From: Candidatus Poribacteria bacterium
GTDB taxonomy: Bacteria; Poribacteria; WGA-4E; WGA-3G
DNA length: 64,000 nucleotides
NCBI GenBank assembly: GCA_963665235.2
Contig: CAXXLX010000002.1
Location: 768,001 to 832,000 of the forward strand
Direction: 5' to 3'
Position 1 is the first letter of the stretch; every line of letters begins with the position of its first letter. Of the stretch, positions 5,413 to 60,902 are shown piece by piece. The position numbers and the translations under genes are program-made. The notes beneath the pieces are model-generated. The model worked only from the letters and a program-made list of their open reading frames with translations, had not been told where the DNA came from and did not search any database.

Positions 5413-6411
5413 ATGGCAAAACTACGTGTAGGTGTTATAGGATGTAGCGGTATTGGGACAACGCACGCATCGGGGTTAGTGGGTTTACCGAACGTCGAAT
5501 TAATCGCCGGATGCGATTTTGTGCAAAGCACCCTGGATGCCTTCAAAGCAAAATGGCAGGGCACTTGGGATGACATCTCCCTTTATACAAATCATCAGGA
5601 GATGCTTGCCGCCGAGAATTTAGATATTGTGACGGTTGCAACTTCTGATCATCGGCATGCTGACCTTGTTGTTGATGCGGCAAACGCAGGGGTTAAAGGA
5701 ATATTCTGTGAAAAACCGATGGCGACCAGCGTGGAAGATGCGGACAGGATGATGGAAGCGACACAACAAAATGGCACAATTTTATCAATTGACCATACCC
5801 GCCGATGGCAACCTTTGTGGCGACATACCAGAGAGGACATCGTCGGGGGCGGACGTATCGGAGATGTACAATATGTCATCGGTACGTTGAGCGGGGGCCG
5901 CGCGATGCTCTTCCGTAATGGGACACACTGTGTTGATGCTATATGCTACTTCGCGGACTCGGAGCCAGAGTGGGTTTCGGCTGAATTAGAGGAGGGCTAC
6001 GAGGATTATGATGAATATAAGGGGGATGGTGGGCATGCCCCATCAACTGAACCATCAGCGCACGGGTATATCCACTTTGCAAACGGCGTGCGCGGCTATT
6101 ATGCTGGCGGCCCGAAGACGACGCAATCCGGCTTTCGTGCGGAGATTGTCGGCACAAACGGCTATATTCTGATTAACGACAGGGGGGCCACAATTCACCA
6201 AGGAGATTCGGTTGAAAACATTGAAGCACCAACGTGGGATGTCGTCGGTATTCCTGCGGGTGTTCAAGAGTTAGTGAAACTTGTCGCCGAAGGCGGCGAG
6301 CCTGTCTCTCCTGGCACTGAGGGGTATAAGGTTGTCCAGATTATCATCGGTTTCCTGACTTCACAACAGCAGGATAATGGAAAGGTGAAGCTGCCGTTGT
6401 CTCAAAGTTAG
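5413..6411 (+). CDS. Gfo/Idh/MocA family oxidoreductase
   Basis: VGVIGCSGIG Rossmann motif, CEKPMA, G.H..D. Confidence 0.92.
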   Translation: MAKLRVGVIGCSGIGTTHASGLVGLPNVELIAGCDFVQSTLDAFKAKWQGTWDDISLYTNHQEMLAAENLDIVTVATSDHRHADLVVDAANAGVKGIFCEKPMATSVEDADRMMEATQQNGTILSIDHTRRWQPLWRHTREDIVGGGRIGDVQYVIGTLSGGRAMLFRNGTHCVDAICYFADSEPEWVSAELEEGYEDYDEYKGDGGHAPSTEPSAHGYIHFANGVRGYYAGGPKTTQSGFRAEIVGTNGYILINDRGATIHQGDSVENIEAPTWDVVGIPAGVQELVKLVAEGGEPVSPGTEGYKVVQIIIGFLTSQQQDNGKVKLPLSQS

Positions 6412-6554
6412 TAATGTATATAACGTGAGCTCGGTGTAAGAAATAAGTTTTGATAAATAGAGAGCTCCTATGTTATAACGCGAAGAGGGCTGGCGCGGAT
6501 ATGCTACCAGCCCTATATCCAAGAAAAAGGCAAAAATGGCTTTCTGCGTTTTAC

Positions 6555-7047
6555 CTCTCCTCCGCTACTACATCCCAATCCTTTAGGTTTGGGATGTAGT
6601 AGCGGCGCATGAGTTGAAATTTTAATTTGACTTTTTCTAAAAACTGTGGTATAATTATACTGACACTTTTGGATAGCATTGTCACCCTGCACAAACTCAG
6701 TGCAGGTGCTATCCCTCACCCGTGACAAGGTGTGTAGTGTTAGTGTTAGACCACTTTAAAAGTATATCGGGCAGTTAACGCATAATTGAGCGAAAGCTTG
6801 TATCGTGGCGGGGGTGAAAGTCCGCACGTTGTATTGCTGCCACTCTCTTAAATATCGTTCGGATGATTCTATTTCGAACGAGGCACGCGGGGATAGCCAG
6901 GAACCTTCTGACCTGATATGCCCGGAGGATTTTTCACCTGCGGGGAATCGCGTGCGGGTGGAGCGACAGTTAGACGGTAAACTCTCTGAGTAAACCGCAG
7001 TTGCTACGAAACCGAAGCCCACGCCTTTAGGCGTTGGGTGCTATCAC
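6555..7047 (+). mobile_element. ORF-less (non-autonomous) IS200/IS605-derived element
   Basis: Left hairpin ccgctactacatcccaa...ttgggatgtagtagcgg; 45 bp (6591-6635) identical to 58931-58975; right end gaagcccacgcctttaggcgttgggtgctaTCAC resembles the right end of the element at 26064. Confidence 0.8.
6659..7047 (+). ncRNA. Putative structured ncRNA (omega/reRNA-like 3' part) inside the ORF-less IS element
   Basis: TTGACT-17-TATAAT promoter (6627-6655) followed by many complementary helices and two pseudoknot-type pairings; no credible ORF. Confidence 0.55.
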
Positions 7048-8960
7048 AGTTCATCTATAGAGACTTCTACGGTCCCTTTTTCATCGGCGATAAAGTATCG
7101 GTGATCAGGGAACTTTTCTGCAAGCTTCCGTTTTCCGTTTTTTCTATGTTTAGCGTATATATGTGATTTTGCAAAGGGCGCGTTAAATGGATAATGTACT
7201 CGAAGTATGTATTCCTCTTTCACGAAAACAAGTGCTTTTTCCATACTGTTTTCGTCAAGGTATTTTTGAATTGTTACGTCTACCCCATAAGCTTGATATG
7301 ATTTTACTGTTGCCGGCACATTGAAAAGAAAAGCAAATAGAAAAAGACTTATAAGTATTACACACAGTATATTTTGTGCATGTGCGTAAGAGACTATTTT
7401 CTGCCAAGATGTCAGGAGCCGCGTGCTCAATGCAATCCCCCGGCTTGTTAAGAGAATTAGGGCTGGAAACGTTTCATACACGTACCTTGGCCCGAAGGTG
7501 AACTCGTTGAAGAAATAGAAAACCTGTGCCATGAGCAATGCCCCTATCCATCCGACAAGTAGCCATTCCCACTTTTGTTTTTTTCCGAATGTGAGGTAAA
7601 GACAAACAAAAAAGAGCGAAGGCATTGGCCATTCAAACAGATAATAGTTAAGTCCGTTTAGATTGCCATTCACGTATTTCAGTCCTTGTGTGAGCGTGTG
7701 TGATTGCTCCACCCACGGATCTTGGTGAAAGCCTGGGTAGTGTCCTTTACCATGTGCGGCGATATATCCAAAAAGGAGCGGGTCTCCTGTCGTTGCGAAG
7801 TTGTAAGCGAGAAATGCCAACCCCATGACAAGGATAGGGATTGCACCTATAAGGATATGCCGGCGTGACAATTCTTTCCGCATGACAATTGCTGCGATGC
7901 CCATTAGGATACAAATCCATGCAGCTGTATAGGGCCTGCACAGCAGGGCAATGCCTAAAGCCGTCCCGCAGGCCAACGCTGAAAACAGTGGACGTTTATC
8001 TTTAACCACCCGGACGAAACTCAGAAAAGCCACAGTTATGAAAAAGAGGGTTGAACTGTGTGACATGAACTCTGAGGACATGAAGAGAAAAAAGCTGCTT
8101 GCGGTTGCCAACAAAGCAGAAAGTTTTGCGATGTTCTCCTCATAAAGCTCCTTGGCTATCAGATAGATACACACGATTGTCAACGCACCCAATAGTGGAT
8201 TCACAAGCCAAGCAAGACCGAAAAGTACACCGAATGCAAGTACAGCGGGGTATCCTGGCGGGAACTGTGTATACCAGCTGTCGTCAAGAATAACATGTAG
8301 GTTTTCAAAAAATTGCGGTTCTGGAGGTACCGGGGCAGAAAGTGTACCGTGCGCGAACAGGCGCGCTTGAAATAGGTACGCGCAGCCATCTATAGTCCCC
8401 GGCACGCCATCGAAAAGATGCCATGAGATTAAGCCACATATTAACAAAGCACTCGCAAATAATCCGCCTATAAAAGCTCGAGGTGGCATGTCGCGCATCC
8501 ATTGAAAAAGGCGAAAACAGATTGTCCGAATTCGGGATAGTCGCATGCAGAGCAATCCGCGAAAACATAGGGCGATACCGACACCGTTGACAATCATGCT
8601 ATACCCACTGGGTAGAAGTCCGACAGCATTGAAACGTGCGGTGTTAAAGGACGCATGTAGTGGCAACACACAGATAAAAAGCAGGATGCTAAAGACAACA
8701 ACGTGAACCCTCCGTTGACTCAACACTTGGAAGTCCGGTATTATCAAAAGCAGCATGTAAAACAGAAGTCCCCCGGCAATTAGATTGACACCCCAGATTG
8801 GAAAAGAGATTGACAGATACGAAGATTCCTGCCAAGAAATTAGCACTTTGTCATCAAGAATAACAAAGTGCTTTTTTATCCAATATCCAAGGAAAAGGAA
8901 AAAGAGCGCACCGATAAAATAACTCGCTATACGACACAATTGAATGAGTCTGGATTTCAT
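7044..8960 (-). CDS. GT-C fold (PMT/ArnT-like, GT39/GT83) membrane glycosyltransferase
   Basis: Polytopic membrane protein with D...Y..QA, PPGYP, RPY and GPRY motifs. Confidence 0.75.
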   Translation of the reverse strand: MKSRLIQLCRIASYFIGALFFLFLGYWIKKHFVILDDKVLISWQESSYLSISFPIWGVNLIAGGLLFYMLLLIIPDFQVLSQRRVHVVVFSILLFICVLPLHASFNTARFNAVGLLPSGYSMIVNGVGIALCFRGLLCMRLSRIRTICFRLFQWMRDMPPRAFIGGLFASALLICGLISWHLFDGVPGTIDGCAYLFQARLFAHGTLSAPVPPEPQFFENLHVILDDSWYTQFPPGYPAVLAFGVLFGLAWLVNPLLGALTIVCIYLIAKELYEENIAKLSALLATASSFFLFMSSEFMSHSSTLFFITVAFLSFVRVVKDKRPLFSALACGTALGIALLCRPYTAAWICILMGIAAIVMRKELSRRHILIGAIPILVMGLAFLAYNFATTGDPLLFGYIAAHGKGHYPGFHQDPWVEQSHTLTQGLKYVNGNLNGLNYYLFEWPMPSLFFVCLYLTFGKKQKWEWLLVGWIGALLMAQVFYFFNEFTFGPRYVYETFPALILLTSRGIALSTRLLTSWQKIVSYAHAQNILCVILISLFLFAFLFNVPATVKSYQAYGVDVTIQKYLDENSMEKALVFVKEEYILRVHYPFNAPFAKSHIYAKHRKNGKRKLAEKFPDHRYFIADEKGTVEVSIDEL

Positions 8961-25234: not shown

Positions 25235-26097
25235 CCATTTTAATTATCCAATTTAAAATTCAAGGAAAAAACGCCACAGGTGAGAAATCCCAAAAGCCTC
25301 TACCGCAAATATTCTCCCCACGATGCTCAGCAATCCATGTCTTCAGCGGGACATCCGCATCTGTAGGTTGCCACCAGCCTTTAATGTCCACACCATCGCC
25401 TAACAACTGTCGTCGAATCGGGCCGCATTTCTCAAGAATCTCTGGTGGCATGAGGTTGTAATCCAAACCACGCAACCACCGATAACTGTATCCCATAAAC
25501 AAAACTTTTCGCGTCACATCGGAGAAATTCCAGCCGCGTGAATGCCACATCCGCCGATCGAAAAGTACAGCGGTACCACGCTTGACGAGCAAATCCATCG
25601 CACCATCAGGGTCGCCATCAGGCTCACTTGGCGGCGGTAAAGTGTCAAGTTTATGACTTCCCGGAATAAGACGCATTGCTCCGTTATCACGATGCGTAAC
25701 GTCGGTTAACCAATAGCTGACTTTAAGCGAAAGGCGCGGATGTGGACGTTCCATCTCCGGTATAGGTCTACCGCCATCCTGATGCCAATGCGCCGCTTTC
25801 CTGACACACAGTCTATCGGGGGGTTCCGGCGGATACATGATGAGATGCAAGATGTAAAGCTGGATGTTCCACCCCAAAATATCCCAGAGCAGCGGAAAAA
25901 CCTTCCTGTTATCGAGCAGTTCCAGCAGTAGGTCATCTTCAATGACGGTGCGGAATTTGGATAACAACTTATGTGGTGCCAGCCCGGTTTCGGCGCGTTC
26001 CGCCGCATCAACCCTGTCGGCGACCTCTTCTAATGCGTCTACCATCTCTTGACTAATTGCGTCGTGATACTCACAACGCCTAAAGGCGTGTGCTTCT

Positions 26098-27378
26098 TTA
26101 CCGCCTCTTGGACGGTTTACTTGATATGAGTCCCGAAAACGGTGACCACGAATCAAGTCTACATAGGTTCGGATTATACCTGATACCTACGGGGGATACC
26201 ACCACCCCGACTACAGGGTTAAAAAGGTAACCCTGATACGCTGTGAGAATATTACTCGCACCCACTACATCTCTATGACCATGCCACCCGCATTTGGGGC
26301 ATTTATAGTTGCGTTTGACTGGTTTTTTGCGATTACCGCAACTTGGGCAGGTTTGAGAGGTATAGGCTTCGTTTTGGGTATCAACTTTGATACCAAGTGC
26401 TTTTGCTTTGTAGGTAATCATCTCTCTAAATTGAGAAAATGCCCACTGGTGTAACTTCTCATTGGCTTTTCTACCGTAGTTTATGGATTGTCGGATATGC
26501 TTAATATCACCAATAACAATCGTTTCTATCTTTCGCTTAAAGCAAGAAGAAACAAACCGTGATGTGATTTTGTGTCGCATGTCACGTAACTGCGACGCTA
26601 TTTTGAAAAGGAGTTTGTCTTTGGCGCGCTTGAGTTTTTTCCAACGCCGACTGCCTCGCTTGCATCTTGAGAGTTTACGGTTGAGACTCCCTTTGGACTT
26701 CTCGCGATACCGCACTTTACTGCGGTGTTCGCGTCCGTTGTAGATTTCGGCAGTGATACCGTCGAAAGCTGTGATTGGGTGTATTTCACCCATATCGACT
26801 GCAACGGCTGTCCCGTGTTTTATTTTTGGCTGTTTCGGTTGTGTTTGGTACGTTGCATGGAACTCATACGCTTTTGTTGTTTTGTTGTAGACAAGGGATA
26901 CTTCGGTTGGCACAATCTTATGGAATTTCTTGTCAACCTTGATATAAACAGCTTCGCGTCCTTGACCCATAGACAATCGGAGTCTGCCAAGTTTATAGGT
27001 GATACCCGTCGCACGCCAGGTGAAAGTGTGGAATTTATATGTCCGTTTGGGCGGCTTTGCCTTGGGATTAGATTTTTTATTGCAAAAGAAAGAACGCCTT
27101 GCACCGCAATAGTCGTCTATAACTGCCTGAACAGAATGCGCATGGCAGGGATACCGCTTAAACTTAAGATATTTCTTGAGGCCAGCATCGGACAACCAAA
27201 AACCCTTTTTGTTGTATGTTCTAAACGCAAGTGATACCGTTTTGGAATAGATTCGTCCACCGAGACGATTTATCGCGTCTAATTCCGATGTCGGTTTTGC
27301 TGTCGCTATAATGTAGGTTCGAAACGTTTTGGTATCCTTTTTAGACATGCTTTTGGTCCTCAATATACCTTTTGACAA
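26098..27378 (-). CDS. tnpB: TnpB RNA-guided nuclease (rearranged RuvC-II type)
   Basis: VAVDMG, IVIGD, NEAYTSQTCPSC...CPKC, HRDVVGASNI. Confidence 0.92.
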   Translation of the reverse strand: MSKGILRTKSMSKKDTKTFRTYIIATAKPTSELDAINRLGGRIYSKTVSLAFRTYNKKGFWLSDAGLKKYLKFKRYPCHAHSVQAVIDDYCGARRSFFCNKKSNPKAKPPKRTYKFHTFTWRATGITYKLGRLRLSMGQGREAVYIKVDKKFHKIVPTEVSLVYNKTTKAYEFHATYQTQPKQPKIKHGTAVAVDMGEIHPITAFDGITAEIYNGREHRSKVRYREKSKGSLNRKLSRCKRGSRRWKKLKRAKDKLLFKIASQLRDMRHKITSRFVSSCFKRKIETIVIGDIKHIRQSINYGRKANEKLHQWAFSQFREMITYKAKALGIKVDTQNEAYTSQTCPSCGNRKKPVKRNYKCPKCGWHGHRDVVGASNILTAYQGYLFNPVVGVVVSPVGIRYNPNLCRLDSWSPFSGLISSKPSKRR

Positions 27379-27754
27379 CTTCTAAGGAGGGGCTACCCAC
27401 AGATGATATGAATTTAGAACGCGTCCACAAATAAGGTAAGCGAGATTTTAGGCATGCGAATTCCTCACGGAGCACACTAGAGGTAAAACCTTTTATCAGC
27501 CCAACCTTCCGTGTAAATGGCACTTTGGGGTTGTTTTCTATTATCATAAGCACAGGGTCTTGCATAACCTCACTGGCACACACCTTAAAATCTGACTCGG
27601 TTTGTTTACAACAGATTAGCGGGTGCAAGCGTTTTTGTATCCGTTCGGTTAAAACCTGGCACCGATACTTCGGACACCAGAGGACAGGATACTGAAAACT
27701 GTAAACAAGGTTTGTCTCGGAGGACCAATGCTTTTCTCCATTCTTAATAAACAT
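27341..27754 (-). CDS. tnpA: Y1 (HUH) transposase TnpA, probably inactive
   Basis: WCPKYR, KGFTS..LR.EF, LW..S.F.SSVG, YIEDQ; HUH motif reads DPVL. Confidence 0.85.
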   Translation of the reverse strand: MFIKNGEKHWSSETNLVYSFQYPVLWCPKYRCQVLTERIQKRLHPLICCKQTESDFKVCASEVMQDPVLMIIENNPKVPFTRKVGLIKGFTSSVLREEFACLKSRLPYLWTRSKFISSVGSPSLEVVKRYIEDQKHV

Positions 27755-48278: not shown

Positions 48279-49649
48279 TTAAGATTTAAAACGTACATCC
48301 CAAGCACATCGAAACCCGATATTTGCGGTAAACCTTGCTGAGTACTGAGAGAAGAGCGTGGTGAGAAAAGGCGAACCTCCATGGCGTGCAGCAATTTGAT
48401 TAGGTTTTGACGAAGTAAAATACGAACCACCTCGCAATACGCGATTATTTGTAATCTCCCAGAAGTCCGAAATTAATATGTCAAAATCCTCTTTCGAGTT
48501 TACACCCGCAATTGGATTCTGTAGCGGTGAATTTCCATAAAAAGCGATTTGATACGCATCAAGACACCACTCCCATACGTTTCCTACTATATCATGCAAA
48601 CCGTAATTGTTTGCTGGATATTTTCCGACAGATATAGTTTCACCAGCATTCTCACCACAATGCGCTTTGTCTGAATTCAAAGCGTCGCCCCATGGGTATT
48701 TTTGGCCTGTTAAGCCCCCCCGTGCTGCTTTTTCCCATTCCGCTTCTGACAGTAAACGTTTACCGCTCCATTTTGCATACGCCATCGCCGCATACCAACT
48801 GACATGAGTCACAGGATGGTCCCCTTTTCCAGCCGGAAAGTTGTTCCTATTCCAATGTTTTAGATAGTTTCCATCGTGGTATCTTCCAAGTCCAAGGATA
48901 GATAACCTCTTTTTTGCCTTATTCCACGCGTCCCGTTCCGATAGCTTCCGCCATTTGGGATTAGCCTCAATGAACATCTTATATTGTGCATTCGTCACCG
49001 GATATTTATCCACACAGAACGCATCAACGTAGACTGCATGCTCTCGATTTTCACGGGTATTCCACCATTCTTGGCTTCCCATTTGAAACTCGCCCGCTGG
49101 GATGAGCACCATATCTTCTGGGACTGAGACGCTTAAGGATGTTTGTTCGGAGGTGGAAGATTCCTCGGTTTCAGGTGTAGTCAATTCCTCTACCGAGATA
49201 GGCTCGGTCGGTTGTGGTATTTTAGTTTGTAGTGCTGCGATATGTTCCACCCGTTTTTGTGGGTCTTTCAACGTATCCCGTGCTTGATTTAGAACGGTTC
49301 GCCACTGTTCCTGCGTCCTACCGTCCGGACGCGGAAGTCCGCCCGCCTGCAACGAGGCACTATACTGCTTTTTATGTGCTTCATCAATGCGGGTCAAGAT
49401 GAAGGTTTCATCCCGATTTTCAAATTCATCTACCGAAAACCCAAGCACTTCAAAATAGTTTACACTTTCCCCCACAATTAGTCCTGAGGCTTTCAGAATC
49501 TCATCCGCTTCCGCTGCGGAGAGCCCAAACTGCTGCACCGCTTGCTGGAGAAGCCCGATGCGCTGTTCGTCGGTAATCGTTTTTGATAACGTTTTGAGTG
49601 TGTTGACAACTCTAATGAATTCGTCGTGGCTATCGGTATGTTGGTTCAT
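48279..49649 (-). CDS. J-like domain + FGE-sulfatase (SUMF1) domain protein, paralogue 3
   Basis: NYFEVLG...RPDG...LNQARDTLKDP.KR; IPAGEFQMG, EAEWEKAARGG, GNVWEW, RVLRGGS...GFRC. Confidence 0.85.
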   Translation of the reverse strand: MNQHTDSHDEFIRVVNTLKTLSKTITDEQRIGLLQQAVQQFGLSAAEADEILKASGLIVGESVNYFEVLGFSVDEFENRDETFILTRIDEAHKKQYSASLQAGGLPRPDGRTQEQWRTVLNQARDTLKDPQKRVEHIAALQTKIPQPTEPISVEELTTPETEESSTSEQTSLSVSVPEDMVLIPAGEFQMGSQEWWNTRENREHAVYVDAFCVDKYPVTNAQYKMFIEANPKWRKLSERDAWNKAKKRLSILGLGRYHDGNYLKHWNRNNFPAGKGDHPVTHVSWYAAMAYAKWSGKRLLSEAEWEKAARGGLTGQKYPWGDALNSDKAHCGENAGETISVGKYPANNYGLHDIVGNVWEWCLDAYQIAFYGNSPLQNPIAGVNSKEDFDILISDFWEITNNRVLRGGSYFTSSKPNQIAARHGGSPFLTTLFSQYSARFTANIGFRCAWDVRFKS

Positions 49650-49826
49650 GTTTTCCGTTCTCTAAATTCTGTTTTTTTCGGGCATCTGCGGATTACCATA
49701 GAGGGGATTCAGCTAGGCGAGACTGGTTAATAGTTGCGTTTAATTCGTAGCGTTCAGCAACTGACTCGACAAGCTCCAGTAACCATCGGTATGTTGGTTC
49801 ATGTTTTCCGTTCTCTAAATTCTGTT
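49632..49826. repeat. 42-bp direct repeat (49632-49673, 49785-49826) containing the start of paralogue 3
   Basis: atcggtatgttggttcatgttttccgttctctaaattctgtt exact twice. Confidence 0.9.
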
Positions 49827-50310
49827 AGGTTTTTTCGCTCTCACTTCTCGCTCATGCAAAACTCCTTCGCTTGTGCAGATAGGGAGATAATGTGTCTACT
49901 TCAGGTATTTGATCGCCATCGTAGTCAAGATATTGAACCCTTCCGATATGAAATTGCTCGTTGGTTCCGAGACTTTTTACAAAAGACTCAAAGCGAGTTT
50001 TAATTGCAATACCTCCTTGGGTGCTAGAGTACAATTTCCACATCGCCTCTGATTCGTGTGTGCTTTCGTGCCAACAACTAATCAACGTAAAACGCGGTAA
50101 TTGCTGCATCACGGGGGCATACATATTGCTTTCTTCATCACGGAACGAATCTATGTTTCTCCTAGGTAATGAGCCCTCAAAAGGGTCCCCCAATTTGTCC
50201 GCCCTTGCGAAAAATAGGGCACCATTTTCCAAAATTGAGACAAATTTTGTGAAATCCATGTACCTCCACAAAATTGCGTCTGTGTGAGGGAGGTTGTGAA
50301 CACAAAACAT
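49693..50310 (-). pseudogene. DUF2971-like gene, frameshifted and internally disrupted
   Basis: LWRYMDFTKF, DPFEG, SCWH...ESEAMWKLY, KR.SF/HEREVR frameshift; detached tail LLELVESVAERYEL...PLW*. Confidence 0.7.
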
Positions 50311-50515
50311 AAATAAAAATTCCGGTACTAGTTGACGTGCGGGTTTTGCCCAATCTGAGCATTTGTTAGTGTAACAGATTCTATGCAATAAGACTTCTAC
50401 TTCGTGCCCTGCGGCATATAAGGTTGTCGCTCGAGACTTCTTATCCTTGTCAATTTCTAAGATCTACTCAGGACCAGGTGAGATGTTTACGCGTTCCGCT
50501 ACGTGCACAGGCAGT

Positions 50516-50947
50516 TCACTTAGATGATACATTTCGCTTCCGTCCAGTTGGAACTGTTGCCCAATTAGCGTGTCCCCTATAGACCATGACCGCATTAATG
50601 AAGAAATGGGTTGGGTAACGCCAGACATAGGCGACGACTCTTTCATCAGAAATCTCAATCGGCAGGAGCGTCACCCGTTTGCCCTCTATGAGCTCCTTCA
50701 AATATCTAGCGGCTTTTTCGTCTTCGGGGGTGCCTTTTTCCGGGGGGATTATATTCGCTAAACGCACCTTTTCGAACCCCCTTAGTTTTTCCATCCGTTG
50801 TATAGGAGTTTCGGGCAGAAGTGGAAGCATTTTAATGTGTTCAAGAAAACTGCGGTTTTCTTGACTGGAAAATCGCATAACAGTTTCGGTAGGACTCACC
50901 TCAAAAGTATCGCCATCAATGACTTTTTCTACATTATACACATACAT
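50516..50947 (-). CDS. Thermonuclease (SNase)-like protein
   Basis: VIDGDTF, VRL.NI.PPE, L..LI.GK.V, R.VAYV, IN..MV..GHA. Confidence 0.75.
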   Translation of the reverse strand: MYVYNVEKVIDGDTFEVSPTETVMRFSSQENRSFLEHIKMLPLLPETPIQRMEKLRGFEKVRLANIIPPEKGTPEDEKAARYLKELIEGKRVTLLPIEISDERVVAYVWRYPTHFFINAVMVYRGHANWATVPTGRKRNVSSK

Positions 50948-51066
50948 TTTTTTCTCCTCCAGTGTGTTTTAGCTGATAACTGAACAATCGAATTGTAGCA
51001 CAAACCTGCAAAAAAGGCAAACAGAAAAGAGGGGTATAAAATTTTATCAGGAGTTCGGACAGCATC

Positions 51067-52380
51067 TTAAGAGGTGACTGCCCTGACACATCGGAAGCCA
51101 TAGCTGTAATATGTGAAATTGGGGGGAGCCCAACCGCAATAGGCGACTTGCGCGGCACGCTCGCTACTTGCCCAAGACCCCCCACGCAGTACACGAAACG
51201 TTGCAATATGCAAAAAATTGGTTGTGATTTCATCAATGCTGTCAACCATTAAACCGGGGTGTCGACGTGGGGTATTACCATCATGTTCATCAAGACACCA
51301 TTCCCACACATTACCCGCCATATCATACACGCCATAGTCGTTAGGTGGATACTTGCCAACGGGGGTTGTTCTTCCGAGCTGCATGCCGTAATTCGCAAGG
51401 TTTATATCAATTCCATCGCCCCATGGATATATTTTCCCTACTAATCCGCCACGTGCCGCTTTTTCCCATTCCGCTTCAGTTGGCAACCGTTTATTTGTCC
51501 ATTGTGCGTAAGCCATGGCGGCATACCAACTCACATTTACAACCGGATAATCTGCTTTCCCTCTAGGCGGAGTATTGCCATTCCAAGTATTTAAGTAGTT
51601 CCCATCGTGGTAATCTTTAACGATTGTATTTTTCTGCCACTGAGGATTAGCCTCTATAAACGCCTTATATTGTGCATTGGTCACCGGATATTTATCAATC
51701 AAAAATGCATCCATGAAAATTGTTTGTGCGGGCATTTCGCTCGTATTTTCCGCTTTGTCCTGCTCACCCATCTGAAACTCACCGGCAGGAATGAACACCA
51801 TACTATCAGGGACATCGAGATTGGGTGGAACTGATACCGGGTCGGTATTTGAAAGGGGTAATACGGAGATAGTTTCGTGTGTACTTTCTGGCGTTGGCTC
51901 TGCGTTCTCAAGCTCGATTTCGGGGGAAGGCAGGTCAGTCACGGATATCTCTAATGTATCTGCGTCGCTCAGGAATGTCTCCATATATTCTCGCCGCTTT
52001 TGTGTATCTACTAAAGTATCCCGCGCTTGATTTAAAACAGTTCGCCACTGTTCTTCTGTTTTACCATCGGGACGCACGCGCGCACCGGCACCCAACGATG
52101 CCCTATAGCACTTATCGTGAGCAGACTTAACAACGCTTACGATTGCTTGCTCATCTAAACCTTGGATATTTTCTATTGAAAGGTCCAGTACCTCAAAATA
52201 GTTTATCTCCTCCCCGACTACCAAACCGAGAGACTTCAGAATCTCTGTGGCTTCTTCAACAGCCAGCTCGTAATTCTGGACTGCCTGTCTCAGCAACCCA
52301 CGCCGTTGAATATCTGTAATAGTCGGTGATACATTTTTGAAGGTATTAAGGAGTTCAATAAATTCATCACGTTTGGACAT
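51067..52380 (-). CDS. J-like domain + FGE-sulfatase domain protein, paralogue 2
   Basis: NYFEVLD...RPDG...LNQARDTLVD..KRREY; full SUMF1 motif set. Confidence 0.85.
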   Translation of the reverse strand: MSKRDEFIELLNTFKNVSPTITDIQRRGLLRQAVQNYELAVEEATEILKSLGLVVGEEINYFEVLDLSIENIQGLDEQAIVSVVKSAHDKCYRASLGAGARVRPDGKTEEQWRTVLNQARDTLVDTQKRREYMETFLSDADTLEISVTDLPSPEIELENAEPTPESTHETISVLPLSNTDPVSVPPNLDVPDSMVFIPAGEFQMGEQDKAENTSEMPAQTIFMDAFLIDKYPVTNAQYKAFIEANPQWQKNTIVKDYHDGNYLNTWNGNTPPRGKADYPVVNVSWYAAMAYAQWTNKRLPTEAEWEKAARGGLVGKIYPWGDGIDINLANYGMQLGRTTPVGKYPPNDYGVYDMAGNVWEWCLDEHDGNTPRRHPGLMVDSIDEITTNFLHIATFRVLRGGSWASSERAAQVAYCGWAPPNFTYYSYGFRCVRAVTS

Positions 52381-52414
52381 ATCTCATTTCACTTTAAAAA
52401 ATGTGACAAAACCT

Positions 52415-53701
52415 TTAAGATTGGATATCCTTTACACACCGAAAGCCGAAGGTAGGGAGCGTGTCCGTTGGATTACCTTTGAACCGGTAGGCACACCGCA
52501 CACCTGCGGAATCAATTCCCCATGAACCGCCACGCAACACGCGAGTGCTTTTAACGCTTTCGAAGTTTCGCGTTATCCACTCCACACTGTCTATGGCAGA
52601 GAAGGGATTTTGCGGTGAGGAATTCACATAGAAATAGGCATGATACGAATCCAGGCACCACTCCCACACGTTTCCACTTATGTCGTAGAGACCGTATCTG
52701 TTAGCAGGATAATGACCGACTGGTGTGGTATCACCAACATAATAGAAGTAGTTTGCATCGTCAGCACTTATTGAATCTCCCCACGGATATTTCTTGCCTG
52801 TCAAACCGCCCCGTGCGGCCTTCTCCCATTCCGCCTCTGTCGGTAAACGTTTCCCTTTCCACTGTGCGTACGCCATCGCTGCATACCAACTCACATTTAC
52901 AACCGGATGCTCACCTTTTCCACTCGGGTAGGTTTCATCCTCCCAATGCTTCAGGTAGCCTCCATCGTGATAGGCACTAGGAATATGGTCTTTGAACCAC
53001 CGCCGTTTGTGCCACTGTGGGTTAGCATCGACGAATTCCTTGAATTGTGTATTGGTTACCAAGTATTTGTCCATGAAAAATGCGTCGAGAGAAACGGTGT
53101 GAACCGGATGTTCGTCTTCGTTTGCTGCCGGGTCATCACTGCCCATTTGAAAATTGCCCGCTGGGATGAACGCCATGTCTGGCGGTGCGTCGATATTGGG
53201 TGTAACTATCTGATGATTTAATTCCTCAGTCTCAGTTAGCTCAGGCGGAGGCGATGGGTTTTCTTCCGGGAGTGCTTCTGCTTCAGTCTGCTGGAACATA
53301 GCGGCGTGTTCGTGCCTTTTCTGGGGGGCAATCAACGTATCCCGTGCTTGATTTAGAACGGTTCGCCACTGTTCCTCTGTTCTGCCATCGGCGCGGGGAC
53401 GACCCCCCGCCTTTAATGAAGCACTGTATAGGTTTTTGTGCGCTGCTGCCACGCGACTCATGACAGTCGTGTCGTTTAAGTTTTGAATCTCAGCGATTGA
53501 GAATCCCAATACCTCAAAATAGTTCACACGTTCACCGATACCTATTCCCGAGGCGTTGAAAATGTCAGTTGCTTCTTCAACAGTGAGACCGTGCTGCTGA
53601 ACGCCTAATCGGAGAAACCCTTTGCGTTGTTCGGCGGTAATTGTCGGTGAGGCGGTTTTAAGCGCCTTAAGAAATGCTATGAATTCCTCGCGTTTAGACA
53701 T
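52415..53701 (-). CDS. J-like domain + FGE-sulfatase domain protein, paralogue 1
   Basis: NYFEVLG...RADG...LNQARDTLIAPQKR; full SUMF1 motif set. Confidence 0.85.
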   Translation of the reverse strand: MSKREEFIAFLKALKTASPTITAEQRKGFLRLGVQQHGLTVEEATDIFNASGIGIGERVNYFEVLGFSIAEIQNLNDTTVMSRVAAAHKNLYSASLKAGGRPRADGRTEEQWRTVLNQARDTLIAPQKRHEHAAMFQQTEAEALPEENPSPPPELTETEELNHQIVTPNIDAPPDMAFIPAGNFQMGSDDPAANEDEHPVHTVSLDAFFMDKYLVTNTQFKEFVDANPQWHKRRWFKDHIPSAYHDGGYLKHWEDETYPSGKGEHPVVNVSWYAAMAYAQWKGKRLPTEAEWEKAARGGLTGKKYPWGDSISADDANYFYYVGDTTPVGHYPANRYGLYDISGNVWEWCLDSYHAYFYVNSSPQNPFSAIDSVEWITRNFESVKSTRVLRGGSWGIDSAGVRCAYRFKGNPTDTLPTFGFRCVKDIQS

Positions 53702-56218: not shown

Positions 56219-56410
56219 TAACGTGAGTTTGGAAAAAGTTTTCCCTTAGTATTCGGGCAACCAGCTCGCTCCGTAGGGACGATATATTTATAGAAAAAGA
56301 CGTTTCCATCCTAATTCTTAGTCCCAGTATTCGGGCAAGCAGCCCGCTCTTTAAGGACGATATGTTTATAGGGGTTAGGCAAACCGACATTTATTATCAA
56401 ACTCACGTTA
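56219..56410. mobile_element. MITE (taacgtgagtttg TIR family) with two internal REP-like units
   Basis: taacgtgagtttg...caaactcacgtta; internal unit is the reverse complement of 60691-60756. Confidence 0.8.
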
Positions 56411-58893: not shown

Positions 58894-60302
58894 CAAATCT
58901 TCCGCTACAAAACCCCCATGCTTTAGCTGGGGGATGTAGTAGCGGCGCATGAGTTGAAATTTTAATTTGACTTTTCCTGAAAAATGGGGTATACTCTATT
59001 TAATGCCTTAGCGGAGAATCTATAGACTTCTCCGCCCCTTTTTAGAGGCAGGTAGCAACTTTTCAAGGCAGGATACCCTTAGATGTATACCACAAAATAC
59101 AAACTTTTTCGTGCCCCGCGTAATCGTAATCTCAAGCGTTTAACGTGGGTGGCCCATGATGTTTGGAACTATTTTTTAGGTTGGCAGCGGACGCGCTATT
59201 CTCTTGGTCTTGCGTATATGTCGCTTCCTGAGATGTCGCGTGCCTTTACCGTCCTTAGGAACTCACATCCTGAAGTGTTTTCGCATTGGCGTGAGTTAGA
59301 CTCTTGGGCGGCGCGTGATATACTGCGGCGTTTAGACACCGGGTATCAGCGTTTTTTTAAGTGTATTGCGAAGCGTCCGCCTAAGTTTCGTTCATGGCGC
59401 AAACCGTATTCATTCACAATGTCCCCCTCTGGCTATAGTTTCTATGGTGATAGGGTCCGTATAATGGAAAAACAATATCGGTTTAATCTAAGCCGCGAGA
59501 TAGTAGGTAATATTAAGACAGTCACTATCAAAGCAGATAGCGTTGGTGACTTCTATATGTGTGTTGTAACAGATGACACCGTATCTGAAATCCTACCTAA
59601 GACGGGTAGTGCTGCAGGGTATGATTTCGGTATCAAAACGATGTTCACCTGTTCCGATGGCACAGCCTATGCGTCTCCTGAGTTCTATAAAACCTCTATG
59701 GCGGATTTGTCTGTAGCCCAACGTGCCCATGCTAAGAAAGTAAAGGGTAGCAACAACTGTGAGCGTTCCCGCTTAAATGTGGCGCGCAAACACCGTAAAA
59801 TCAAGAGACAACGTGAGGATCATCATTGGAAACTCGCGAAGCGTTTTGTGCATGAACAAGATCACCTCTGTTTTGAGACGTTGACTTTTGAGGGGATGAA
59901 ACGGTTGTGGGGGTGTCAAGTTTCTGATATTGCGCCCTACTCGTTTCATCAAAAGTTGCAACATCAAGCGGTCAAACACGGTAAAGAGGTTCACTATATT
60001 GACCGTTTTGAACCGACTTCTAAGACTTGTAGCCACTGTGGACAGCGAAAACAGCAGCTGGACTTGTCTGTTCGTCAATGGTGTTGTTCTACTTGCCATC
60101 AGAAACACCATCGTGACGTTAACGCTGCGATAAATATTTTAAAGGTTGGGGCGTCAACCTTTGGATTAGAGGATGTCAGCCTTGCTATTGCGAGCAGCCC
60201 TCGCAGACTTCACCCGAAGTCTATACCCCACAATCCGCACCAGAAAGCATGGGATTCACTTTCAAAAGAATCCCCCTTGCTTTAGCTGGGGGAGTATGTC
60301 AA
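58894..60302 (+). mobile_element. IS200/IS605-family tnpB-only element (IS1341-like)
   Basis: Matching hairpins ccccc.tgctttagctggggg at both ends; right end ...gagtatgTCAA; TTGACT-17-TATACT promoter. Confidence 0.9.
59083..60285 (+). CDS. tnpB: TnpB RNA-guided nuclease (canonical D-E-D)
   Basis: GYDFG, LCFETL, PTSKTCSHC...CSTC, HRDVNAAINI. Confidence 0.93.
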   Translation: MYTTKYKLFRAPRNRNLKRLTWVAHDVWNYFLGWQRTRYSLGLAYMSLPEMSRAFTVLRNSHPEVFSHWRELDSWAARDILRRLDTGYQRFFKCIAKRPPKFRSWRKPYSFTMSPSGYSFYGDRVRIMEKQYRFNLSREIVGNIKTVTIKADSVGDFYMCVVTDDTVSEILPKTGSAAGYDFGIKTMFTCSDGTAYASPEFYKTSMADLSVAQRAHAKKVKGSNNCERSRLNVARKHRKIKRQREDHHWKLAKRFVHEQDHLCFETLTFEGMKRLWGCQVSDIAPYSFHQKLQHQAVKHGKEVHYIDRFEPTSKTCSHCGQRKQQLDLSVRQWCCSTCHQKHHRDVNAAINILKVGASTFGLEDVSLAIASSPRRLHPKSIPHNPHQKAWDSLSKESPLL

Positions 60303-60664: not shown

Positions 60665-60690
60665 GATAATAAATGTTCGTTTTTCCTAAC

Positions 60691-60902
60691 CTCTATAAAT
60701 ATATCGTCCTTAAAGAGCGGGCTGCTTGCCCGAATACTGGGACTAAGAGACCGGGCGTTAACGGATCTCTATAAATATATCGTCCTTAAAGAGCGGGCTG
60801 CTTGCCCGAATACTGGGACTAAGAGACCGGGCTGTTGTGTGTTTCTACGAACATACTGTCTATATTGGGCTAAGAGGTCAAAACTTTTTTCAAACTCACG
60901 TT
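60691..60902. repeat. Two exact 66-bp tandem units plus a taacgtgag-family end
   Basis: 60691-60756 = 60767-60832; caaactcacgtt at 60891-60902. Confidence 0.85.

Follow-up and report, generated by a model that had tools for sequence, protein, structure and literature searches.

A protein-less IS200/IS605 element of Poribacteria carries a structured RNA that joins a TnpB-type guide-RNA scaffold to a 5' extension without tnpB, tnpA or Rfam kin

Bases 6555-7047 of the analysed DNA, a 64,000-nucleotide stretch of a Poribacteria sponge-symbiont genome (the window, to which the positions refer), form a 493-base ORF-less element of the IS200/IS605 type. The neighboring genes encode a GFO/IDH/MocA oxidoreductase (5413-6411, plus strand) and a PMT_2-type membrane glycosyltransferase (7044-8960, minus strand). 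The element is antisense to the glycosyltransferase gene and occupies its stop codon. As read from the sequence, this gene takes its final codon base and its TGA stop from the last base of the element and the TCA at 7044-7046, while in the empty site TTTAC would give the same leucine codon and a TAA stop. With the same leucine codon and a stop in either case, the C-terminus of the glycosyltransferase (…DEL) is unaltered by the insertion. The main features of the element, and the two related elements of the window, are as follows.

6550-6554 (+), target or transposon-adjacent motif TTTAC, directly 5' of the element
6555-6626 (+), left end with a subterminal hairpin at 6562-6605 (44 nt)
6627-6655 (+), predicted sigma-70-type promoter, TTGACT-17-TATAAT with a TG extension
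6659-6758 (+), 5' domain of the RNA, described by models R1 and R2
6759-6882 (+), middle domain of the RNA
6883-7047 (+), TnpB omega-RNA-type scaffold of ~165 nt, by homology to tnpB-linked ends
7018-7038 (+), right-end hairpin, covarying among 31 copies
7048-7063 (+), predicted guide agttcatctatagaga, the first 16 nt of the flank, placed by position only and with the length taken from ISDra2 (PMC10097598)
26064-27890 (-), IS605-type element with tnpA (27341-27754) and tnpB (26098-27378), Pfam Y1_Tnp and OrfB_IS605, left boundary approximate
58898-60300 (+), tnpB-only element, left end and promoter of the same type as in the element at 6555, different right end

The window contains other repeats as well. 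Three paralogous segments of 70-200 nt (66-86% identity, spacings of ~2.7 and 1.4 kb) lie within 48557-53463 and are probably paralogous genes, and a repeat with a 12-nt period is found at 1887-2008.

The ends of the element agree with what the initial annotation, made from the letters of this DNA, had reported for them. Both IS hairpins are intact, the left end shares an identical run of 45 bases with the tnpB-only element (placed there at 58894, here at 58898) inside a 96-nt stretch of 86% identity, and the right end is similar to that of the IS605-type element with its end at 26064. Left ends ~80% identical to that at 6555 are also located just upstream of two Y1 transposase genes (left ends at C1:3153030 and C1:33157, genes near C1:3153209 and C1:32727). 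The element terminates with TATCAC, up to 7047. In the listed copies the left end follows TTAC, TTTAC, TTAT or TTAA, with unrelated flanks on both sides; the exact insertion cut carries a one-base ambiguity. That the element is mobile is shown by its copies, which have unrelated flanks both here and in many other genomes. In respect to the features of PATEs, the element has subterminal imperfect palindromes at both ends, inserts 3' of a short motif without target duplication, holds no protein gene and occurs in several copies at unrelated sites, with a Y1 transposase in the same genome (13 Y1_Tnp matches, 12 of them above the curated cut-off). No joint skipping 6555-7047 was found for this multi-copy element among the contigs of four sequencing runs.

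The lack of a credible ORF after the promoter, also pointed out initially, holds for the family. Stop-free stretches in 31 copies span 40 to 107 aa, the two longest ORFs of the window copy have only piecewise matches in other copies, with the frame changing between pieces, and in none of the 40 fetched loci is an open frame of 150 aa or more contained entirely in the element. A small conserved ORF, on either strand, was considered and rejected, because the reading frame shifts between copies.

The near-consensus promoter proposed at 6627-6655 agrees with the consensus at 11 of 12 positions, and both boxes (-35 and -10) are conserved among the aligned copies, including those of other genera. 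Its activity is predicted, and a promoter scan of 6400-7300 gave two promoter-like sites vs 1.5 expected from shuffled sequences. The predicted transcription start is at ~6659, where the 5' domain begins, so the RNA would start within a helix. On the plus strand, the scan gave no terminator-like site 3' of the right end. In one RNA library (with DNA carry-over possible and the element being multi-copy), contigs from related copies cover 6627-6861 and the right end; none of those listed spans the entire RNA stretch, and contigs cannot give the start, end or level of a transcript.

The RNA, ~390 nt long, was modeled as three consecutive parts, the first two of which form the 5' extension (6659-6882). 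The paired and conserved segments are listed below from 5' to 3'.

6660-6666/6737-6743 (+), P1 of the 5' domain
6671-6677/6708-6714 (+), P2 of the 5' domain
6679-6685/6722-6728 (+), pseudoknot PK1 of the 5' domain
6686-6692/6700-6706 (+), P3 of the 5' domain
6717-6720/6729-6732 (+), P4 of the 5' domain
~6743-6745/6752-6754 (+), P5 of the 5' domain, weak
6660-6666, 6737-6743, 6744-6749 and 6750-6755, repeat-related segments (columns 2-8, 108-114, 115-121 and 122-129 of alignment A3)
6769-6774/6837-6842 (+), long-range helix of the middle domain, 98% paired, with all 5 counted pairs changed on both sides
6787-6800 (+), optional GAAA-tetraloop hairpin of the middle domain, missing in 14 of 31 copies
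6808-6825 (+), hairpin of the middle domain with the loop GGTGAAA
6825-6837 (+), nearly invariant segment CACGTTGTATTGC of the middle domain
6855-6881 (+), variable hairpin of the middle domain
6883-6890/6948-6955 (+), basal stem of the scaffold
6892-6897/7040-7045 (+), pseudoknot PK3 of the scaffold, GATAGC/GCTATC
6898-6915 and 6921-6944 (+), hairpins of the scaffold, the loop of the second pairing with 6813-6819
6962-6967/7000-7005, 6975-6978/6994-6997 and 6981-6984/6988-6991 (+), further stems of the scaffold

The 5' domain was modeled on six copies from two other genomes and the alignment comprises 44 copies, 42 of them distinct, with the ones of this genome among them. In this alignment 95.4% of the cells are paired, 27 of the 36 pairs show changes on both sides, and none of 500 shuffles matches the score; when the partners are slid against each other, pairing falls to 31-49%. 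PK1 is absent from the alignment model and is nonetheless 98% paired; 5 of its 7 pairs carry two-sided changes, and six or more sequence versions occur. For the middle and 3' parts the pairs were counted in 31 full-length copies: 90.3% of the cells are paired, 31 of 75 pairs are changed on both sides, and the covariation score is reached by 0 of 500 shuffles. At several positions G-U is the commonest pair, on the plus strand only. Folding of the single sequence gave a minimum free energy of -132.9 kcal/mol (z = -2.36).

The middle domain and the scaffold are connected by a second crossing interaction, PK2, in which GGTGAAA (6813-6819) pairs with TTTCACC (6932-6938), that is the loop and the 3' strand of the hairpin at 6921-6944. 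At least 7 contiguous base pairs are formed in 22 of the 31 copies, two of which carry the compensated version GGTCAAA/TTTGACC. The partner motif TTTCA is found in 26 of 31 ORF-less scaffolds vs 3 of 13 tnpB-linked ones. Compared with the set of pairings drawn from the single sequence in the initial annotation, the covariation of the 44 copies confirms the three nested helices 6659-6667/6736-6744, 6671-6678/6707-6714 and 6686-6692/6700-6706, the pair counts support 6856-6863/6873-6880 and 6883-6889/6949-6955, and both crossing pairings stand (for the second, the double change is seen in 2 of 31 copies). The helix 6805-6811/6837-6843 lacks support: it is paired in 77.4% of cases, a value matched by 54 of 500 shuffles, and the covarying helix 6769-6774/6837-6842 replaces it. 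The 5' extension is under selection as RNA.

A tandem repeat of 6-7 nt makes up the 3' strand of P1 and the 5' strand of P5, and the partners of these strands are also alike. Among 39 distinct copies the 5' end can pair (at least 5 contiguous base pairs) with the first repeat in 32 and with the second in 35. In the copies L100 and L102 all four repeat-related segments are changed in concert. The tandem repeat together with the concerted changes hints at alternative pairing.

In the case of the 3' part, kinship to TnpB guide RNAs is visible at several levels. The last ~100-165 nt recur in relatives, where all 13 examined right-end matches directly follow a TnpB-type ORF (11 of ~370-410 aa and two shorter) ending with …DRD(V/I)NAA(I/K/R/L)NI…. 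An nhmmer profile of the ORF-less RNA matched 21 of 21 tnpB-linked loci, over positions ~122-288 in 12 loci and from 183-192 to 288 in eight, while the remaining locus is a further ORF-less element, matched from position 57. The match to tnpB-linked loci starts only at GCAGGCGGGGATAGCC, which corresponds to the last tnpB codons, and ~20 nt at the start of the scaffold derive from these codons (...AGIA). PK3 is 100% paired in the 31 copies and appears as GATACC/GGTATC, with a G-C to C-G swap, in three of them. Similarity among the copies ends at TATCAC, and the flanks differ right after. From this homology we read the last ~165 nt as a TnpB guide-RNA scaffold, in agreement with the likeness to a TnpB omega/reRNA scaffold ending at TCAC that had been proposed. 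Elsewhere in the genome the predicted guide has matches that are chance 12-mers only, without an adjacent target motif.

The preceding ~225 nt (6659-6882) are a structured RNA without tnpB, tnpA or Rfam kin. No family of Rfam 15 matched the whole window at the gathering score; at E<=10, region 6400-7200 gave 13 weak matches, with no riboswitch, ribozyme, group I intron or HEARO among them, the strongest being microRNA and snoRNA models placed on the left-end hairpin. When three TnpBs and one TnpA were compared by tblastn with the 5' 226 nt of 40 copies, the best hit had an E value of 0.42, and hits were scattered over both strands. A likeness of 6803-6855 to the C-terminal coding region of tnpB, seen by eye, was dropped, because the nhmmer profile of the middle domain found no consistent place in the tnpB ends. 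In genome G067 an ORF-less element lies in tandem 31 nt upstream of a tnpB element (L173, G067:C1:4550700-4553000), and the two are alike only over the left end and promoter (~110 nt) and the final ~105 nt; the tnpB element, the second of the pair, is inserted after TTTAT. The initial annotation had offered two identities for what it took to be a stand-alone mobile RNA gene, a trans-acting guide scaffold or a new class of structured RNA, and both halves hold, the former for the 3' part and the latter for the 5' part. The Rfam search is consistent with a new class for the 5' ~225 nt. Origin as decayed tnpB, which the annotation had named as the finding that would overturn it, does not do so, the extension having no tnpB or tnpA match and ~20 nt of tnpB frame being all that is left.

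The extension is not tied to one scaffold. It also occurs fused to another scaffold and right end (TATGAC), those of a second TnpB lineage (388 aa; C1:1303437 and C2:528790). A short class of ~290 nt with this second-lineage scaffold has the same 5' and middle domains and is represented by three copies in this genome.

The distribution of the RNA was followed with covariance models R1 and R2 of the 5' domain (first 100 nt of the RNA). This genome (G000) contains 10 R1 and 12 R2 matches. R1 matched 49 of 112 genomes of the window's family, and R2 matched 74 of 151 genomes of a phylum sample; without the window's own genome, R2 was found in 69 of 99 genomes of the window's family, 4 of 26 of a second family and 0 of 25 from seven other families. 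These counts are lower bounds, as a diverged copy in G007 is missed by both models. One genome for each of 185,579 species was also scanned with a degenerate 25-mer from the middle of the RNA, which gave 69 loci, 40 of them in Poribacteria, all 40 true and 37 full length. The 29 loci of other phyla were rejected, since with nhmmer they match just the motif or nothing (E values from 2.6e-4 to 6.4e-3 for five of them); we read them as chance matches, their number being about as expected by a rough estimate. By these searches the RNA family is confined to Poribacteria. The literature search, made in the texts of the papers themselves, found none combining 'Poribacteria' and 'TnpB'; supplementary files may list such elements.

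BLAST detected a right end on the 3' side of the 5' domain in 37 of the 40 fetched loci. Measured from the start of the domain, it comes after 366-424 nt in 30 of them, after 289-295 nt in five, after 326 nt in one and after 699 nt in one, and the 699-nt copy contains a tandem-repeat expansion. The remaining three loci comprise one with a variant right end (judged by eye), one that is truncated and one interrupted by another element. In L087 (G115:C1:1111519-1114621) the RNA element is interrupted ~330 nt in by another insertion, with a 363-aa open frame that starts MFVPVKTKDGRQLMP… and contains …GVDPGSKKEG…; we take this protein to resemble the IsrB/IscB type without the HNH domain. Copy c5 (G000 C1:892456-893214; L005, L073) has a ~330-nt tandem expansion with the 18-nt unit gtcctcggtgggaccgat within the scaffold and is also duplicated in part of the 5' domain. 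Copy c4 (G000 C1:185197-185642) has an insert, gagcgggctgcttgcccgaa, in the variable hairpin. Words of this insert recur in the inverted repeat that flanks 56.3-60.8 kb of the window (56248-56387 and 60677-60842), and insert and flanking repeat may represent a second small repeat family.

Proteins that could serve such an RNA are common in these genomes. The TnpB of the tnpB-only element (59083-60285, 400 aa) contains the Pfam domains OrfB_IS605 and Cas12f1-like_TNB and, in a comparison with the solved structures of the PDB, matches the TnpB of ISDra2 with an E value of 1.2e-34. Of 112 family genomes, 98 have a TnpB of this clade, which makes its co-occurrence with the RNA uninformative. Five genomes (G006, G015, G065, G076 and G093) have an R2 match and no TnpB at E <= 1e-60 with a single query. 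Among the tnpB genes of this genome the closest right end belongs to G000 C1:331168-332271, which is a candidate for the cognate TnpB on the sole basis of 81% identity across the final 91 nt.

Our main reading, to which we give a probability of about 0.68, is that of a protein-less, non-autonomous PATE or stand-alone omega-RNA element in which tnpB is replaced by a ~225-nt structured RNA, working in the following way. Transcription from its own promoter (6627-6655) would begin at ~6659 and pass the right end into the flank, the last ~165 nt would fold as a TnpB omega-RNA scaffold, and the flank after 7047 would serve as the guide. A TnpB encoded elsewhere, for which the gene with the closest right end is the candidate, would bind the RNA in trans. 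The Y1 TnpA would excise the element, TnpB would then cut the rejoined empty site (TTTAC followed by the guide), as in the homing described in the cited work, and repair from a sister copy would presumably put the element back. Within the RNA, the middle-domain loop would dock on the peripheral hairpin of the scaffold, and the pseudoknotted 5' domain would start at the predicted transcription start. The extension most likely acts to stabilise, fold or assemble a guide RNA that would no longer be made as the tail of a tnpB mRNA. A stabilising role of the 225-nt fold is plausible but not demanded by precedent, since the ISDra2 RNA 5' of the 116-nt scaffold is dispensable.

The same data can be read with the extension as an RNA functional by itself, either a ligand- or protein-sensing switch gating the guide or a cargo RNA, help to the guide not being its main role. 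We consider this unlikely. In its favour, covariation is strong, unpaired segments such as that at 6825-6837 are nearly invariant, the module is fused to two different scaffolds, and the pairing of the P1/P5 repeat with the concerted changes in L100 and L102 has the expected look of an alternative-pairing switch. However, the repeat could be a relic of duplication, the extension was met without a scaffold and right end only where a copy is truncated, as in L069, it matches none of the riboswitches and ribozymes of Rfam, and there is no downstream gene to regulate. We also hold it quite doubtful that the extension is a new class of structured RNA domain which controls the TnpB guide, perhaps with a switch built of alternative P1/P5 pairing and loop docking. 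If this were true, TnpB would be loaded or activated conditionally, or a second protein would be recruited, and the element would encode a natural regulated guide RNA.

It is very improbable that the conserved pairings have their role in the single-stranded DNA of TnpA-mediated transposition and not in RNA, even though IS200/IS605 elements move as single-stranded DNA with end hairpins that act in DNA (10.1101/2023.03.14.532601), which could explain the covariation of the right-end hairpin, and even though DNA also forms G-T pairs. The conserved promoter stands exactly before P1, a GAAA tetraloop, pairings between loops and a pseudoknot close to the guide are typical of folded RNA, and the scaffold is homologous to tnpB-linked omega-RNA regions. 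We give almost no weight to an interior made of decayed tnpB or of a self-splicing intron of the IStron kind. Decay fits the ~20 nt at the start of the scaffold, which stem from the final codons of tnpB, but the 5' 226 nt of the 40 copies gave nothing better than E 0.42 by tblastn, and the middle domain has no consistent place in tnpB by nhmmer. Group I introns end in G, whereas the element ends in C, has its own promoter and is antisense to the gene that it touches; no group I intron match was obtained up to E 10. In favour of an intron is the existence of IStrons, which join structured RNA and omega RNA in IS605/IS607 elements (10.1101/2023.11.20.567912).

Several known RNAs are similar in part. 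HEARO, the omega RNA of IscB, is large, pseudoknotted, mobile and tied to IS200/IS605, and is located upstream of iscB with a 5' guide. The RNA described here is likewise a large, pseudoknotted, mobile non-coding RNA tied to IS200/IS605; it differs by the lack of an Rfam match, by a guide on the 3' side and by the absence of an ORF. IStrons also carry a large structured RNA on the left and an omega RNA on the right, and their minimal forms without tnpA and tnpB exist as laboratory constructs, as far as described in the accessible text (10.1101/2023.11.20.567912). Unlike them, the present element has no group I intron signature, has a promoter of its own and is not placed in sense within a gene in the window. 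With the omega RNA of ISDra2 (PDB 8EXA and 8H1J; PMC10097598) it shares the pseudoknot of guide-adjacent nucleotides with an upstream segment, a peripheral hairpin, a 3' guide and a related TnpB (E 1.2e-34). The two RNAs have no sequence similarity, the pseudoknot partners are ~150 nt apart here vs ~100 nt in ISDra2, the target motif is TTTAC/TTAY here vs TTGAT, and the 5' region in ISDra2 is tnpB coding sequence and dispensable, as stated in the accessible part of PMC10097598.

The closest parallel is found in stand-alone omega RNAs, which act in trans with compatible effectors and whose biology is called unknown (PMC10691335, citing Altae-Tran 2021), and in PATEs, which often encode omega RNAs (preprint 10.1101/2023.03.14.532601). 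As far as the accessible parts of these two sources go, the likeness comprises a protein-less, mobilised element with IS200/IS605 ends, a scaffold that abuts the right end, a guide taken from the flank and the expectation of a TnpB acting in trans. What sets the present element apart is the ~225-nt pseudoknotted extension, which has no counterpart in tnpB-linked elements, and the near-consensus promoter of its own. Such a 5' extension is undescribed in the accessible main texts of PMC10691335, 10.1101/2023.03.14.532601 and 10.1101/2023.11.20.567912. Measured against these texts, stand-alone omega RNAs acting in trans are already known, and the structured 5' extension fused to the scaffolds of two TnpB lineages is new.

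In general, the elements make up a well-populated natural family in which a conserved RNA module, pseudoknotted and equipped with its own promoter, has taken the place of the nuclease gene. Should this module serve to stabilise or assemble the guide, it would offer a ready natural design for expressing TnpB guides separately from the protein; should it gate the guide, the result would be a regulated guide RNA, and to our knowledge there is no earlier one of the TnpB stand-alone kind. With this family, an uncultured phylum of sponge symbionts gains a large structured RNA that Rfam does not contain.
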